Source: Candidatus Krumholzibacteriia bacterium
GTDB lineage: Bacteria; Krumholzibacteriota; Krumholzibacteriia; LZORAL124-64-63
Length of the DNA: 64,000 nt
Direction: 5' to 3'
NCBI GenBank assembly: GCA_963825035.1
Contig: CAWGRT010000015.1
Coordinates: forward strand, 170,456-234,455
Shown here: in pieces, positions 29,846 to 37,871 of the stretch
Layout: every line of letters starts with the position of its first letter
Numbering within the stretch: the first letter of the stretch is position 1
The notes under the pieces: generated by a model
Database searches by the model: none
Told to the model about the DNA's origin: nothing
Seen by the model: the letters and a program-made list of their open reading frames with translations, nothing else
Translations under genes and position numbers: made by a program

Positions 29846-30391
29846 ATGCCGACCTTCAGGACTGTTCAATTCGGTGAGCTGAACTACCGCAGCGACGACG
29901 TGATCCAGCTGCCGGACGGGCTGGTGGGCATGCCCGGGCTGCGCAACTGGCTCATCCTGGACATGGGGGACGACGTGCCCCTGAAGTGGTTCCAGTCCCT
30001 GGACCGGGGTGATTTCGGTTTCCCGGTGACCCAGCCCTGGTTCTACCACGACGACTACGCCGTCAGCGTGCCGGCGGCGGTCCGCAGCCGCCTGCGCACC
30101 GCCGGTGACGCGGACCTGACCACCCTGATCATCACCACCGTCCATCCGGGCGGCGAGAAGCTGACGGGCAACCTGCTGGCGCCCCTGGTGGTGGACACGG
30201 AGACCCGGCGCGGCGCCCAGCTGACCGTGGACGACGGTCGCTACGAGATGCGCCAGGAGATCAACTACGTGAAATTTGGCCTTGCCGTCCAATCCGACTC
30301 GTCGGACAATGGCGGCGCGGAAGCCGCGGAGCCGGCCCTCAGCGGGGCCTGTGCCGAAGGCGCCGAGACGCCCGAGCCTGCGGGTGTCTAG
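29846..30391 (+). CDS. fliW: flagellar assembly factor FliW
   Basis: T.QFGEL....[27 protein letters not shown]...RRGAQ. Confidence 0.92.
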
Positions 30392-30444
30392 CCCAGGACC
30401 GTCGGGCCCCACCGGGGACCGCCGGCACCGGACAGGGAGGTCCC

Positions 30445-30702
30445 GTGCTCATACTCAGTCGCAAACGCAATGAAAAGATCATGATCGGGGACGACATCTC
30501 CATCATGATCGTGGACATCCGGGGCGACCAGGTGCAGATCGGCATCGATGCACCCCGGTCGATTCCGGTGCATCGCCACGAGATCTACGAGGAGATCAAG
30601 AGCACGACGCTCGGCGCGGCCGCGTCCGAGCCCGCCGACATGGAGAAGCTGCGGCGGCGGATCCGCAAGGGGGAGGATCCCAAGGGTGAAGGTCGTGCGT
30701 GA
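30445..30702 (+). CDS. csrA: carbon storage regulator CsrA with C-terminal extension
   Basis: [17 protein letters not shown]...V.IRGDQV.IGIDAP.SIPVHR.EIY. Confidence 0.97.
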
Positions 30703-33515: not shown

Positions 33516-34341
33516 CTAACGCAGCAGGGACAGAGCGAGGCCCGAGGTCGTGTTGGCCTGGGCCAGGATCGAGACGCCCGCCTGCTGCAGGATCTGGTTC
33601 GAGGTCATCACCGAAGTCTCCTTGGCGACGTCCACGTCACGGATCCGGCTGTTGGCGGCCGACGAGGTTCTCCGCGGTCATCCCGATGTTGCGGATGGAC
33701 GACTCCAGACGGTTCTGGATGGCACCGAAATCGGCGCGCTTGCTCGACACGTCGTCGATGGCGTCGTCGATCTCGCCGATGGCCGTCTGGGCGTTGGTGG
33801 CCGTATCGACGGCCGTGCCGGTGCCCAGGTTGGCCGAGTCCATGTTGTCGCCCAGGTCGACGGCGACCCGGTCGGTGGCGGCCGAGCCGATGCCCACCTG
33901 GATGTTCACGGTGCCGCCGGTGCCGTCCAGCAGCTTGACGCCGTTGAACTCGGTGGCGTCGCTGATGCGGTCGATCTCCGAGGTCAGCGCGCTGTACTCC
34001 GAGTCCAGGTACGTGCGCTCGCTGTCGCCCAGGGTGCCGTTCAGGGACTGCTCCGCCAGCTCCTTCATGCGGACCAGGATGTTGGAGACCTCGTCCAGCG
34101 CGCCTTCACCCGTCTGCACGAGGGAGACGCCGTCGGCCGCGTTCCGGGACGCCTGGTCCAGGGCCGCGATGTCGGCCTTCAGGCCTTCGCTGATGGCCAG
34201 ACCGGCGGCGTCGTCGCCCGCGCGGTTGATGCGCAGACCGGAGCTCAGCTTCTCCATGCTCTTCTGGAAGCGCGTGGTCGTGTTGTACAGATGCCGCTGG
34301 GTGTTGAGGGAACCGATGTTGGTGTTGATGCGGATACCCAT
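33516..34341 (-). CDS. fliC: flagellin 1 (274 aa once a single extra base near 33662 is removed)
   Basis: [51 protein letters not shown]; near-identical to flagellin 2. Confidence 0.95.
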
Positions 34342-34465
34342 TGCGTTCCTCCCTGAATGGGTCGTTGCCTTCCTGGCTTCCTGTGTGTGGGGGCCATGCC
34401 CTGATTCCGTCCGAGAAGCCTCCTCCGAAAGGTCGTGCGAAGCACAATTGCTCCGGCTTTATGAT

Positions 34466-34492
34466 GTATCGGCATATCCAGGGAATACTTTA
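34466..34492 (-). promoter_or_regulatory. sigma28 promoter of flagellin 1
   Basis: Minus strand TAAA-N15-GCCGATAC with AT-rich upstream element. Confidence 0.85.
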
Positions 34493-34524
34493 CATTTAAA
34501 AACATCTTTTGCACATGGATTTGC

Positions 34525-34563
34525 AAAAAGAAACGGGCCCGCCGCGGATGCGGCGGGCCCGTT
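34525..34563 (-). terminator. intrinsic terminator of flagellin 2
   Basis: aacgggcccgccgc-ggat-gcggcgggcccgtt with TCTTTTT on the minus strand. Confidence 0.85.
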
Positions 34564-34589
34564 CAGCCGATACTCCGAGCCGACTGCGG

Positions 34590-35414
34590 TTACCGCAGCA
34601 GGGACAGAGCGAGGCCCGAGGTCGTGTTGGCCTGGGCCAGGATCGACACGCCCGCCTGCTGCAGGATCTGGTTGGAGGTCATCACCGAAGTCTCCTTGGC
34701 GACGTCCACGTCACGGATCCGGCTGTTGGCGGCCGAGAGGTTCTCCGCGGTCATCCCGATGTTGCGGATGGACGACTCCAGACGGTTCTGGATGGCACCG
34801 AAATCGGCGCGCTTGCTCGACACGTTGTCGATGGCGTCGTCGATCTCGCCGATGGCCGTCTGGGCGTTGGTGGCCGTATCGACGGCCGTGCCGGTGCCCA
34901 GGTTGGCCGAGTCCATGTTGTCGCCCAGGTCGACGGCGACCCGGTCGGTGGCGGCCGAGCCGATGCCCACCTGGATGTTCACGCTGCCGCCGGTGCCGTC
35001 CAGCAGCTTGACGCCGTTGAACTCGGTGGCGTCGCTGATGCGGTCGATCTCCGAGGTCAGCGCGCTGTACTCCGAGTCCAGGTACGTGCGCTCGCTGTCG
35101 CCCAGGGTGCCGTTCAGGGACTGCTCCGCCAGCTCCTTCATGCGGACCAGGATGTTGGAGACCTCGTCCAGCGCGCCTTCACCCGTCTGCACGAGGGAGA
35201 CGCCGTCGGCCGCGTTCCGGGACGCCTGGTCCAGGGCCGCGATGTCGGCCTTCAGGCCTTCGCTGATGGCCAGACCGGCGGCGTCGTCGCCCGCGCGGTT
35301 GATGCGCAGACCGGAGCTCAGCTTCTCCATGCTCTTCTGGAAGCGCATGGTCGTGTTGTACAGATGCCGCTGGGTGTTGAGGGAACCGATGTTGGTGTTG
35401 ATGCGGATACCCAT
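34590..35414 (-). CDS. fliC: flagellin 2 (274 aa)
   Basis: Intact ORF with flagellin N- and C-terminal motifs; GGAGG RBS. Confidence 0.97.
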   Translation of the reverse strand: MGIRINTNIGSLNTQRHLYNTTMRFQKSMEKLSSGLRINRAGDDAAGLAISEGLKADIAALDQASRNAADGVSLVQTGEGALDEVSNILVRMKELAEQSLNGTLGDSERTYLDSEYSALTSEIDRISDATEFNGVKLLDGTGGSVNIQVGIGSAATDRVAVDLGDNMDSANLGTGTAVDTATNAQTAIGEIDDAIDNVSSKRADFGAIQNRLESSIRNIGMTAENLSAANSRIRDVDVAKETSVMTSNQILQQAGVSILAQANTTSGLALSLLR

Positions 35415-35724
35415 TGTTCGTTCCTCCCTGAATGGGTTCGGTCGTGACTGCGCTTCCGTCGGGCTGGGCCCGTGCTCGTCCCTGAGCCGGAAGCCTGCTG
35501 GAACTGCCGCAAGCGGCATCGATCGCGGTCGAGACCGGGATGTCCTGGGGGAGGAAAGCGCCGCGCGGGCGGCGGTGGGGGGTTCCCGGGTCCGGCACGG
35601 GGCCGGGCCGCGGTGAACGCCCTCGGTTCTCCTCCTTGAGAACCCTGGGCTCGTCCGGACCGTCTCCGATGTTCCGTTCCCGGCCGCGGATGTCCCTATC
35701 CGGACCGGGCGGAGACGCGTTACG
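35415..35724 (-). ncRNA. long structured flagellin 5' leader or candidate CsrA-binding RNA
   Basis: 15 GGA trinucleotides; four ANGGAN hexaloop hairpins at 35687-35702, 35625-35644, 35474-35487 and 35421-35432. Confidence 0.5.
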
Positions 35725-35731
35725 GAAGGAA

Positions 35732-35758
35732 TGATCGGCACGCCACGGCGCCGCTTGA
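35732..35758 (-). promoter_or_regulatory. sigma28 promoter about 320 nt upstream of flagellin 2
   Basis: Minus strand TCAA-N15-GCCGATCA. Confidence 0.75.
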
Positions 35759-35797
35759 GCGGAAATCAAGGACATGCTAAAGAAATCTGCGCGGGTG

Positions 35798-35827
35798 CCG
35801 CCGGCGGTCCCGGAGGACCGCCGGCGG
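35798..35827. terminator. hairpin after flagellin 3
   Basis: ccgccggcggtcc-cgga-ggaccgccggcgg. Confidence 0.65.
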
Positions 35828-35865
35828 TATGGCAAGTCGCAGGGCGGAGCGCGTCCGCCGGGCCG

Positions 35866-36717
35866 CTAGCGCTGCAGCAGGGTCAGCGCGAGCTGGGACG
35901 AGGCGTTGGCCTGGGAGAGGATGGACACGCCGGCCTGCTGCAGGATCTGCAGACTGGTCATGTTCGAGGTCTCCAGGGCCACGTCCACGTCACGGATACG
36001 GCTGTTGGCGGCCGAGAGATTCTCCGCCGTCATGCCGATGGAGCGGATGCTGGTCTCCAGGCGGTTCTGGGCCGCACCGAAACCGGCGCGCAGCTGGCTG
36101 ACGGTGCCGGTGGCCGCGTCGATGGTCGCCATCAGGGCGCGGGCCGTGTCGCCGCCGTCGGGGGCCCCGGAGTTGAACAGCGCCGTGCCGGCGAGGTTCA
36201 GCTGGGTCGTGTCCATGGGGCTGGTCAGGTCGATGGACACGGCGCTGGTGGTCACGTCGGTGCCGATGCCCACCTGGACGTCCAGGCTGCCGGCGGTGCC
36301 GTCCAGCAGCTTGATGCCGTTGAACTCGGCGGTGGCGCTGATGCGGTTCACCTCGTTCAGCAGTTCCTGGTACTCCTGGTTCAGGTAGCCCCGCTCCTGG
36401 TCGCCCAGGGTCTCGGTGGCGGCCTGCTCAGCCAGCTCGCGGATGCGGAGCAGGATGTTGTTGACCTCGTCCAGGGAACCCTCGGCCACCTGCACCAGCG
36501 AGATGCCGTCGGCCGCGTTGCGGCTGGCCTGCTGCATGGCGCGGATGTCCGACTTGAGGCTTTCGCTGATGGCCAGGCCGGCGGCGTCGTCGCCCGACCG
36601 GTTGATGCGCATGCCGGAGCTGAGGCGCTCCATGCTCTTCTGGAACTTGGTGACCGTGTTGTAGAGGTTGCGCTGCGCATTCAGCGAGGCAACGTTGGTG
36701 TTGACGCGAAGACCCAT
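35866..36717 (-). CDS. fliC: flagellin 3 (283 aa, divergent paralog)
   Basis: [60 protein letters not shown]. Confidence 0.96.
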   Translation of the reverse strand: MGLRVNTNVASLNAQRNLYNTVTKFQKSMERLSSGMRINRSGDDAAGLAISESLKSDIRAMQQASRNAADGISLVQVAEGSLDEVNNILLRIRELAEQAATETLGDQERGYLNQEYQELLNEVNRISATAEFNGIKLLDGTAGSLDVQVGIGTDVTTSAVSIDLTSPMDTTQLNLAGTALFNSGAPDGGDTARALMATIDAATGTVSQLRAGFGAAQNRLETSIRSIGMTAENLSAANSRIRDVDVALETSNMTSLQILQQAGVSILSQANASSQLALTLLQR

Positions 36718-36884
36718 CGTGTTCCTCCATGTCGGGGGCGCCGGTCCGGCCGCTTTTTCCTGCTGCGACCTCGCGCGTCCGCCTTGCCCTCGTGACTCAT
36801 TGCGACTTGCCGTGGGAACCGGCGGCGCGTTAACGTGGGGCTGCCGCAACGTCCGTTGCCGACCGCCCGCTGCCGGGAGCGACC

Positions 36885-37871
36885 ATGCAGATTGCCATCG
36901 CCACCCCCGCGGACCACGCCGGGTTCCGCGAGCTGGTCAATGCAGAGATCAGGCCAGATCGTGCAAAAACCAATGCGTGGGACGATTTCCCCTTGGTCCT
37001 GGACCCCGCCAACGCCCCCTGGACGCTGGTGGCCCGGGCTCCGGACGGGAGTGTGGCGGCGGGCATCGCCGCGCTAATCAGGGATCACACAACGAGTTTG
37101 GGGACCGTCGGCGTCGCCGGGGTGGGCAGCGTGGTCACGCGCCCGGAATTCCGGGGGCGGGGCCTGAGCTCGGCCTTGCAGGATGCCTTGCTCACGGCGC
37201 TGCGGCGGCAGGATGTGCCGCTGGCGGTGCTCTGGACCGACCAACCGGAAATTTATGCCGGACGAGGATTCACCGCCGCCGGCTGGGAACACCACGTCGA
37301 TCTGCGCCCGGTGCGGTGGCCGGGGGATACCCCGGCGCCATCCATCCGGCCCTACGCCCCGAGCGACGCCGGGGCGGTGGCGGCCCTCTTCGCCCGCCAC
37401 CGGTGGCGGACCGTGCGGCACCCGGGGGACGACGCGCGACTCTACGGCATGCCCGGCACCGCGGGCCTCGTGGCCCGGGACGCCGGCGGCGGGGTGGCCG
37501 CCGCGGTCTTCTGCGGCAAGGGCGCCGACTTCCCCGGCTACGTGACCGAGTGGGACGGGCCCCTGGATCTGGTGTTGCCCCTGCTGGCAGCCGCGCGGGC
37601 ACGGGGCCTGGCCGAGGCGGTGCTGGTGCCCGCGGGGGCCGAGGCCCTGCTGGAACGGCTGGTTCCCCTGGGAGCGACCTGCGCGGCGCAGGCCTCGGGG
37701 CAGTGGTGCGTGGTGCGGCCGGACCTGTTGGCCGCGGCCGCGCGGGCGGCCGGGGTGGACGCGCCGGCCGACCCGGCCGACCCGGCGGCCTGGCTGGGCG
37801 GCGTCGCCGCCGACGGTGCGGTGCGGACCGGGCCCCTGGCGGCCGCCGTCTGGGGGTTCGATTCGGTATGA
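36885..37871 (+). CDS. GNAT family acyltransferase (Eis-like)
   Basis: VGSVVTRPEFRGRGLSSAL acetyl-CoA motif, LW...PEIY...GF. Confidence 0.8.
   Translation: MQIAIATPADHAGFRELVNAEIRPDRAKTNAWDDFPLVLDPANAPWTLVARAPDGSVAAGIAALIRDHTTSLGTVGVAGVGSVVTRPEFRGRGLSSALQDALLTALRRQDVPLAVLWTDQPEIYAGRGFTAAGWEHHVDLRPVRWPGDTPAPSIRPYAPSDAGAVAALFARHRWRTVRHPGDDARLYGMPGTAGLVARDAGGGVAAAVFCGKGADFPGYVTEWDGPLDLVLPLLAAARARGLAEAVLVPAGAEALLERLVPLGATCAAQASGQWCVVRPDLLAAAARAAGVDAPADPADPAAWLGGVAADGAVRTGPLAAAVWGFDSV

Follow-up and report, generated by a model that had tools for sequence, protein, structure and literature searches.

The 64,000-nucleotide (nt) stretch of contig CAWGRT010000015.1 from a Candidatus Krumholzibacteriia bacterium which was analyzed here (the window) harbors a tandem flagellin array on its minus strand, the second gene of which (flagellin 2) is preceded by a leader of approximately 310 nt. 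Comparison with the arrays of related genomes shows that the sequence of this leader corresponds, in order, to the leader of a lost flagellin gene, four dead codons of that gene, a spacer, and the leader of the next gene, flagellin 2. We propose, with moderate confidence, that this composite leader represents a tandem CsrA operator within a FliW-CsrA-flagellin circuit, the orphan half of which would function as a decoy in cis or as a co-operator; its anatomy and origin are well supported by sequence comparison, and the binding of CsrA and ensuing repression are predicted. A preliminary description of this DNA had recognized a long noncoding flagellin leader with a sigma-28-type promoter and CsrA-type ANGGA hairpins beside fliW-csrA, a view which is supported by the present analysis. 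It had missed the orphaned leader of the lost flagellin gene, which explains both the length of the leader and the doubling of its sites.

Anatomy and origin of the composite leader

The promoter previously placed approximately 320 nt above the flagellin-2 start, TCAA-N15-GCCGATCA, is present on the minus strand, with TCAA at positions 35758 to 35755 followed, after 15 nt, by GCCGATCA at positions 35739 to 35732 (in a slightly extended sequence reading, CTCAAG, 14 nt, and GCCGATCA at positions 35732 to 35759). The described promoter-to-start layout also stands, with the correction that the flagellin-2 ATG occupies positions 35414 to 35412 and thus begins at 35414, not 35415; the leader length of approximately 310 nt assumes transcription to start about 7 nt past the -10 element. 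The sigma-28 (FliA) consensus consists of TAAA, 15 nt, and a GCCGATAA-like element. Both promoter elements are kept in all five genomes of the genus, the same promoter design is found ahead of flagellin genes in other genera, and a loose sigma-28 pattern occurred 36 times genome-wide compared to seven times for a reversed control. By its sequence, and with a FliA/WhiG sigma factor encoded on the same contig (267 bits, curated cut-off of 189.6), the element is predicted to be a sigma-28 (FliA) promoter. A promoter scan of positions 34000 to 37500 returned no sigma-70-like sites, and near flagellin 2 the loose sigma-28 pattern was limited to the leader promoter and that of the third gene, with none nearer the ATG.

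The transcript is predicted to begin with a long 5′ stem-loop, H1 (35660 to 35718, minus strand), which is seen in minimum free energy (MFE) and consensus folds, starts approximately 6 to 8 nt from the deduced 5′ end, and comprises an apical hairpin with the loop AGGGAC (CGGAU-AGGGAC-AUCCG, 35702 to 35687) and an A-rich internal loop, GGAACGGAAC, at 35671 to 35680. It is followed by H2, a Shine-Dalgarno (SD)-mimic or orphan SD hairpin (GGUUCUC-AAGGAG-GAGAACC, 35644 to 35625, minus strand), and by the decayed remains of four codons with which the lost flagellin gene began (35613 to 35624, minus strand), which by register alignment read GAG GGC GUU CAC, formerly AUG GGC AUC CGC. The variable C-rich spacer (35527 to 35612, minus strand) includes a GC hairpin at 35559 to 35574 and a CU tract, CUUUCCUCCCCC, at 35547 to 35558, whose complementarity to the SD is perfect in this genome. 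A consensus fold of four sequences places the third hairpin, H3 (GCUC-AGGGAC-GAGC, 35487 to 35474, minus strand), within a three-way junction (35452 to 35494, minus strand), and the leader ends in an SD/start hairpin (35409 to 35437, minus strand) in which ACCCAU pairs with AUGGGU, the SD (GGGAGGAA, 35421 to 35428) lying in the loop ahead of the ATG (35412 to 35414). The A-N-GGA sites of H1 and H2 are approximately 60 nt apart, and those of H3 and the SD 54 nt. The whole leader folds somewhat better than shuffled sequences (z = -2.46; 1 of 100 shuffles as stable). Two overlapping open reading frames (ORFs) were rejected as coding: that at 34590 to 35741, which runs in frame through the leader, differs in frame and stops among relatives when read by eye, and that on the opposite strand at 35540 to 35734 lies in the same indel-rich region. 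The complete leaders measure 311, 318, 325, and 340 nt, differences which are not multiples of 3.

The provenance of the upstream part is revealed by the arrays of a sister genus (g2), which in all three genomes read comprise four tandem flagellin genes and three spacers. Spacer 1 (245 to 251 nt) contains a terminator, a sigma-28-type promoter, a GGA-loop hairpin, and an SD hairpin directly before AUG GGC AUC CG, this SD hairpin of the second flagellin gene containing GUUUUC-AAGGAG-GAAAACC; spacer 2 (154 to 161 nt) contains an A[A/C]GGA-loop hairpin and an SD, without a U-run terminator or clear promoter; and spacer 3 contains a terminator and an AT-rich sigma-28-type promoter. A further genus (g8) possesses three tandem flagellin genes in the three genomes read, and the pairing of a GGA-loop hairpin with an SD hairpin was seen in the second-type leaders of all six closely read g2 and g8 genomes. 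Within the genus under study (g1), genomes G000 and G003 carry three flagellin genes each and G004 carries two, on a 6-kb contig without a third. The first spacer of g1, measured in three genomes at 456 to 481 nt and amounting to 457 nt between flagellins 1 and 2 of the window, equals g2 spacer 1 plus g2 spacer 2 plus a remnant, and the second g1 spacer, with its AT-rich promoter, corresponds to g2 spacer 3.

Profile searches over 138 kb were in agreement with this correspondence. The best matches of the 5′-block profile were the starts of second-type flagellin genes (E values of 8e-7 to 3e-5), extending 10 to 13 nt into the ORF, with the starts of other paralogues at 1.5e-4 or worse, and those of the 3′-block profile were third-type starts (4e-5 to 6e-4). 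H2 is in register, base for base, with the SD hairpin adjoining the ATG of second-type genes in other genera, among them that of g2, and the next twelve bases are in register with the first four codons of the g2 gene. The position of the orphan start codon reads GAG, ACG, ACG, GTG, and GTG in the five g1 genomes, compared to ATG in 20 of 20 intact flagellin genes. Homology to a leader and to first codons, together with the absence of a start codon and ORF, identifies the 5′ third of the leader as the relic of a flagellin gene. The comparison indicates that an ancestor possessed one extra flagellin gene, as do the three g2 genomes, and that its reading frame was then lost, such that the remaining promoter, H1, H2, and approximately four codons became fused via the C-rich spacer to the next leader, comprising H3 and the SD. 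That the four-gene array is ancestral is suggested by the coding remnant.

A covariance model of the 5′ block (R1) was also searched over 91 genomes of the family. Strong matches were restricted to the five genomes of the genus, and 16 weak ones (E values of 0.002 to 0.09) were found among the other 86, 13 of them at loci with a flagellin gene by tblastn, where the match adjoins or overlaps the flagellin start. The remaining three weak loci, two terminators with ANGGA-type loops and one coding stretch, were rejected, and the search revealed no second orphan leader among the 91 genomes.

Conservation of the loops and probable selection on the relic

The counts of 15 sense GGA motifs, 10 of them within 35580 to 35705, and about 10 antisense ones given in the preliminary description were reproduced, the antisense strand holding 10. 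Across the window, with a G+C content of 70.7%, segments of 312 nt contain a mean of 5.9 GGA motifs (standard deviation of 2.7), and 0.43% of them reach 15; for ANGGA, the leader holds six compared to a mean of 0.88, a value reached by 0.27% of equal segments. Hexaloops of the form ANGGAN closed by at least four pairs number seven across both strands of the 64 kb, compared to 7.9 ± 3.0 in composition shuffles, and three of the seven are located within the leader, with one more on the SD of csrA. As the total is at shuffle level and three of seven fall within the leader, it is the clustering of these hairpins, not their total, which lies far beyond chance.

These three, H1, H2, and H3, were found as previously drawn. 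The fourth hexaloop which had been proposed, UUC-AGGGAG-GAA over the SD, exists here, but its 3-bp stem is lost in two of three relatives; the SD region instead shows the ACCCAU-AUGGGU pairing in 4/4, so that the SD lies in a loop which the start codon closes. The orphan module (H1 and H2) thus offers two loop sites and one internal-loop GGA pair, and the whole leader four loop sites. The probability that the GGA is unpaired is 0.89 to 1.00 for H1 in 4/4 leaders (that is, the complete leaders, the fifth genome being cut at a contig end) and 0.73 to 1.00 for H3.

The leader is common to all four other genomes of the genus at 72 to 78% identity, one copy being truncated by the contig end, and its hairpin loops, whose absence from relatives had been named among the refuting conditions, are kept in all four congeners. 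Across the genus alignment, variation within the four A-N-GGA sites is confined to the N: H1 reads AGGGA or AAGGA, H2 AAGGA or AGGGA, and H3 A[G/A/C/U]GGA across four genomes, and the SD site CA[G/C]GGAGGAA is kept in 4/4. Consensus folds place all four sites in loops, and the apical and outer stems of H1 are invariant in 5/5 genomes. Of the 39 pairs in the 5′ block, 6 have changed on both sides, as have 2 of the 22 in the 3′ block. The 5′ block has a mean pairwise identity of 0.74 and the 3′ block one of 0.66, compared to 0.44 in the spacer.

Beyond the genus, BLAST of the leader against 56 genomes of other genera gave short matches only (20 to 63 nt, E values of 5e-5 to 0.01), in 15 genomes. 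Two exact-pattern scans of metagenome contigs yielded no matches to the leader, and a pattern scan of genome contigs returned five loci, comprising the four congeners already known and L054, and hence no new leader; L054 was rejected as a homologue, its match falling by chance within a coding stretch of an unrelated record.

Because the gene loss is common to all five genomes, the differences among them arose afterwards and are informative as to what was retained. The GGAGGA loop of H2 is invariant in all five, although the start codon 8 to 10 nt away decayed in every one. The stem of H2 shows two paired changes relative to UUUUC/GAAAA, namely UUCUC/GAGAA and UCUUC/GAAGA, each in two genomes, and three genomes show different closing pairs (G-C, U-A, and C-G). 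In an alignment of 11 rows (A5), 88.9% of cells were paired across H2 and three of its seven pairs had changed on both sides; the covariation score was reached by none of 500 shuffles, and slid controls scored lower. A5 was derived from a 17-row alignment of all SD hairpins (A4) by dropping six rows, selected by paralogue type; A4 itself was rejected, as the mixture muddled the counts, the hairpin of the third and fourth paralogues being shifted by one base. By sequence, the H2 stem is judged to have been kept via compensatory changes after the gene loss.

Proposed function and competing explanations

The downstream half of the leader belongs with the two-site CsrA-type flagellin leaders by every sequence criterion checked: a GGA in the H3 loop and a second overlapping the SD lie ahead of a flagellin gene, the genome encodes both CsrA and FliW, and sites and hairpins are conserved, with compensatory changes, in all four congeners. 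It is envisaged that, during late flagellar assembly, FliA-RNA polymerase would produce one transcript bearing two CsrA operator modules, each with two A-N-GGA sites approximately 55 to 60 nt apart. A CsrA dimer on H3 and the SD would stop ribosome entry and thereby repress flagellin synthesis until flagellin export freed FliW to remove CsrA, as in the Bacillus and Campylobacter circuits. CsrA bound to the orphan module, which has no start codon, would repress nothing, and the module may thus serve as a built-in decoy for one extra CsrA dimer per transcript or, alternatively, as a landing pad which feeds CsrA to the working operator. Either way, release of this flagellin mRNA, and of weaker CsrA targets, would occur at a CsrA dose set by the module. 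The decoy version is the one we tentatively favor.

The combination of an RNA decoy with FliW control in a single locus, as had been suggested, is possible, with the flaA leader of Campylobacter jejuni as an analogous precedent. An extension of this proposal holds that the relic is a CsrA sponge in the course of being born from a target mRNA, of which selection kept only the docking hairpins and the late promoter, and which would act as an RNA antagonist beside FliW, either in cis or, once released at the spacer by Rho, processing, or weak termination, as a short RNA. We offer this extension tentatively and consider it doubtful.

Several observations weigh against a tandem operator. The covariation amounts to approximately two independent double changes and the closing pair, and the leader is known from only five genomes of one uncultured genus. 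The MFE folds of G003 and G004 do not contain H2, its GGA being paired with the CU tract (probabilities of being unpaired of 0.00 and 0.31). Identity across the 5′ block (0.70 to 0.86) is no higher than that at flagellin-1 fourfold sites (0.72 to 0.84), which are a poor neutral yardstick, being biased at 70% G+C, the spacer at 0.44 being a better local one. Furthermore, the sequence would fit an orphan module which lowers repression as well as one which raises it, and the need for a promoter together with a stabilizing 5′ stem could alone explain part of the conservation.

This last point can be developed into an alternative in which the relic is kept for transcription and mRNA stability only, providing a promoter, a protective H1, and a ribosome-holding H2, with CsrA binding there being meaningless; flagellin 2 would have lost, or never possessed, a promoter of its own and would depend on the old one. 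The STAB-SD element of cryIIIA mRNA in Bacillus is such an SD-like stabilizer, which holds a ribosomal subunit without translation. Consistent with this alternative, the interval from the relic to the ATG contains no further promoter-like site, the matching g2 spacer also lacks a clear sigma-28 site or U-run terminator, H1 starts close to the 5′ end, and H2, though lacking a start codon, contains a perfect GGAGG. However, a ribosome-holding SD needs no hairpin, yet the stem of H2 was maintained through compensatory substitutions; in both loops, the A-N-GGA letters are fixed, with only the N varying; and loops of this type are also seen in H3 and on the csrA SD. This explanation is regarded as unlikely.

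It had also been proposed that the first 165 nt or so are freed as a CsrB-like sponge by termination or processing at the GC hairpin, which is indeed present at 35574 to 35559 and followed by CUUU. A GC hairpin followed by a pyrimidine tract occupies the same relative place in 4/4 complete leaders, and it may descend from the post-stop hairpin of the lost gene, similar GC hairpins following g2 stops. Its tail, CUUUCC in the window, differs in every genome and contains no U-run in any relative, and a terminator scan, which flagged a canonical terminator after flagellin 2, passed over it and found no terminator-like site in the leader that could serve a sponge small RNA (sRNA). An sRNA resembling CsrB or RsmZ is likewise not borne out by the Rfam comparison which had been called for: at gathering thresholds, only two tRNAs were found across the 64-kb window, and at E values up to 10 the interval 35350 to 35900 gave three matches (P15, P17, and mgtE), all with E values of at least 3.5 and none of a CsrB/RsmY/RsmZ-type family. 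CsrB/RsmZ-type sponges contain about five or more GGA hairpins; the orphan module has only two or three GGA sites, and the whole leader has four loop sites and 15 GGA motifs. Finally, because no promoter-like site is found between the GC hairpin and the ATG, complete termination would silence flagellin 2, leaving it without a recognizable promoter. Release of a free sponge is for these reasons considered improbable, partial release of the 5′ RNA being conceivable.

The RNA library data are too sparse to inform this point. A 151-nt contig of an RNA library (run X1, depth of 2.4) is identical to positions 35532 to 35682, a stretch reaching from the 3′ side of H1 through H2 and the spacer, GC hairpin included; it continues for only 23 letters past the hairpin, short of a bridging rule of 31 letters, and, as its strand and ends are not shown and a DNA origin is possible, no conclusion on read-through, abundance, or habitat is drawn from it. 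None of the 24 RNA runs listed contained half of the leader words, four were examined as assembled contigs, and the other pieces recovered were 90 to 95% matches to flagellin coding parts of other organisms.

The spacer itself could represent a Rho loading site or an anti-SD toggle, and a further alternative views the leader as a transcription attenuator in which CsrA, or pairing of the CU tract with H2 as opposed to the SD, decides Rho-dependent termination, as exemplified by CsrA-aided Rho termination in the pgaA leader of E. coli. The spacer maintains a C content of 0.50 to 0.57 and a G content of 0.23 to 0.30 (in 60-nt windows) in 4/4 leaders despite its unconserved sequence, whereas the matching g2 spacer is not C-rich (C content of 0.30 to 0.37), and rho is present in the three genomes tested. 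In the MFE folds, the partner of the CU tract varies, being the true SD in G000 and G002, and H2 in G003 and G004. Such folds are unreliable for G+C-rich RNAs of 310 to 340 nt, however, the match between CU tract and SD is perfect only in G000, and the evidence for Rho consists of composition; attenuation is judged slightly less probable still than a free sponge. Survival of the 5′ module as a neutral fossil which has merely not yet decayed, to which its confinement to one genus and an identity equal to that of fourfold sites would lend themselves, is very improbable given that the adjacent spacer of the same age has fallen to 0.44 identity with many indels, that the start codon is mutated in 5/5 genomes next to an invariant loop, and that the stem changes are compensatory.

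Genomic context and relation to known systems

Flagellin 2, which the composite leader serves, encodes 274 amino acids (34590 to 35414, minus strand) with both Pfam Flagellin_N (E value of 2.5e-44) and Flagellin_C (1.8e-25) domains. Flagellin 1, the first gene of the array, lies upstream at 35866 to 36717 on the minus strand, was assigned by Pfam, and is followed by a GC hairpin at 35798 to 35827. It has no sigma-28-type site; a motif of the type GGCAAG-N2-GCAAT-TGA is instead located ahead of the first flagellin gene in several genera, here within 36750 to 36830 on the minus strand and also at loci L029, L037, L039, and L044, among others. Transcription of this first gene probably relies on a promoter of another class. 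A GNAT acetyltransferase gene (36885 to 37871, plus strand) is divergent from flagellin 1 and is the neighbor in other genera as well. The third flagellin gene (33519 to 34341, minus strand) has its own terminator (34531 to 34564), an AT-rich sigma-28-type promoter, and a leader of approximately 120 nt. Its product is 98% identical to flagellin 2 over residues 1 to 227, pointing to recent duplication or gene conversion, and its frame is broken near 33664 to 33683, which makes it either a pseudogene or the site of an assembly indel. A more distant flagellin (60% identity) is encoded on another contig (G000:C14:19257-20078).

The fliW-csrA pair is adjacent and situated 4.7 kb from the leader on the plus strand. 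The fliW gene (29846 to 30391; 181 amino acids from the likely start; Pfam FliW, E value of 5.9e-26) lies just upstream of csrA (85 amino acids; Pfam CsrA, 2.5e-25), whose previously given position of 30445 to 30702 was confirmed and of which a single copy was found in the genome, the assembly being 60% complete. The SD of csrA itself is located in a GGAC-AGGGAG-GUCC hexaloop (30425 to 30447, plus strand; loop starting at 30434), a few bases before the GTG, which suggests that CsrA may repress its own translation. At matching places in two other genera, L031:1560-1620 (G095) and L032:1520-1580 (G110), intrinsic terminators between convergent genes have loops which read UCAGGGAGGA and UCAAGGACGA, i.e., ANGGA.

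Literature searches on CsrA decoys, leaders, and pseudogenes returned no leader described as gene-less, under selection, and fused upstream of a working one, and a search on Krumholzibacteria and flagella returned nothing on flagellar regulation in the phylum. The deletion appears to have parted docking from coding in nature, leaving a gene-less operator under selection on the same transcript as a working one. Were the orphan half to bind CsrA, it would offer a ready-made test of how decoy sites tune a near-1:1 partner-switch circuit and a plausible origin story for sponge RNAs, and would extend the FliW-CsrA-flagellin design, on sequence evidence, to the uncultured phylum Krumholzibacteria. 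Should the sponge interpretation hold true, it would also document one concrete way in which a CsrA target can evolve into a CsrB-like decoy.

Two-site GGA and FliW control of flagellin by CsrA is already known, as is, in one species, titration of CsrA by a flagellin leader. In C. jejuni, the flaA leader is described as bearing ANGGA in the loops of SL1 and SL2, the latter over the ribosome-binding site, and as having its structure kept by compensatory changes, with FliW as the protein antagonist of CsrA and the flaA mRNA both repressed by CsrA and titrating it (Dugar et al. 2016, PMC4894983). The likeness resides in the placement of ANGGA within the loops of two hairpins ahead of a flagellin gene, one of them at the ribosome-binding site, in a structure retained through compensatory changes, and in the FliW-CsrA pair. 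The flaA leader is 45 nt long and there forms one two-site module, in contrast to the approximately 310 nt and two modules of the Krumholzibacteriia leader. Furthermore, the upstream module described here is the relic of a lost gene, with no direct control of translation, and is known from sequence alone.

In Bacillus subtilis, Hag, FliW, and CsrA form a partner switch, and the hag leader contains two CsrA binding sites. Like hag, the present leader has a promoter of the sigma-28 (SigD) type, one site in a 5′ hairpin and another over the SD, and an adjacent fliW-csrA pair; it differs in the doubling of its sites, the fossil SD hairpin, the C-rich spacer, and the phylum concerned. It resembles the CsrB/CsrC and RsmX/Y/Z RNAs of the Gammaproteobacteria as a noncoding RNA with GGA in hairpin loops which could sequester CsrA, yet the orphan half has neither an Rfam match nor a terminator of its own, carries only two or three sites, and is both part of, and derived from, a target mRNA. 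The fim leader of Salmonella is an mRNA leader which titrates CsrA for the benefit of other genes and is similarly a cis-encoded CsrA sink; there, the leader still serves its own ORF, whereas here the ORF of the proposed decoy is gone.

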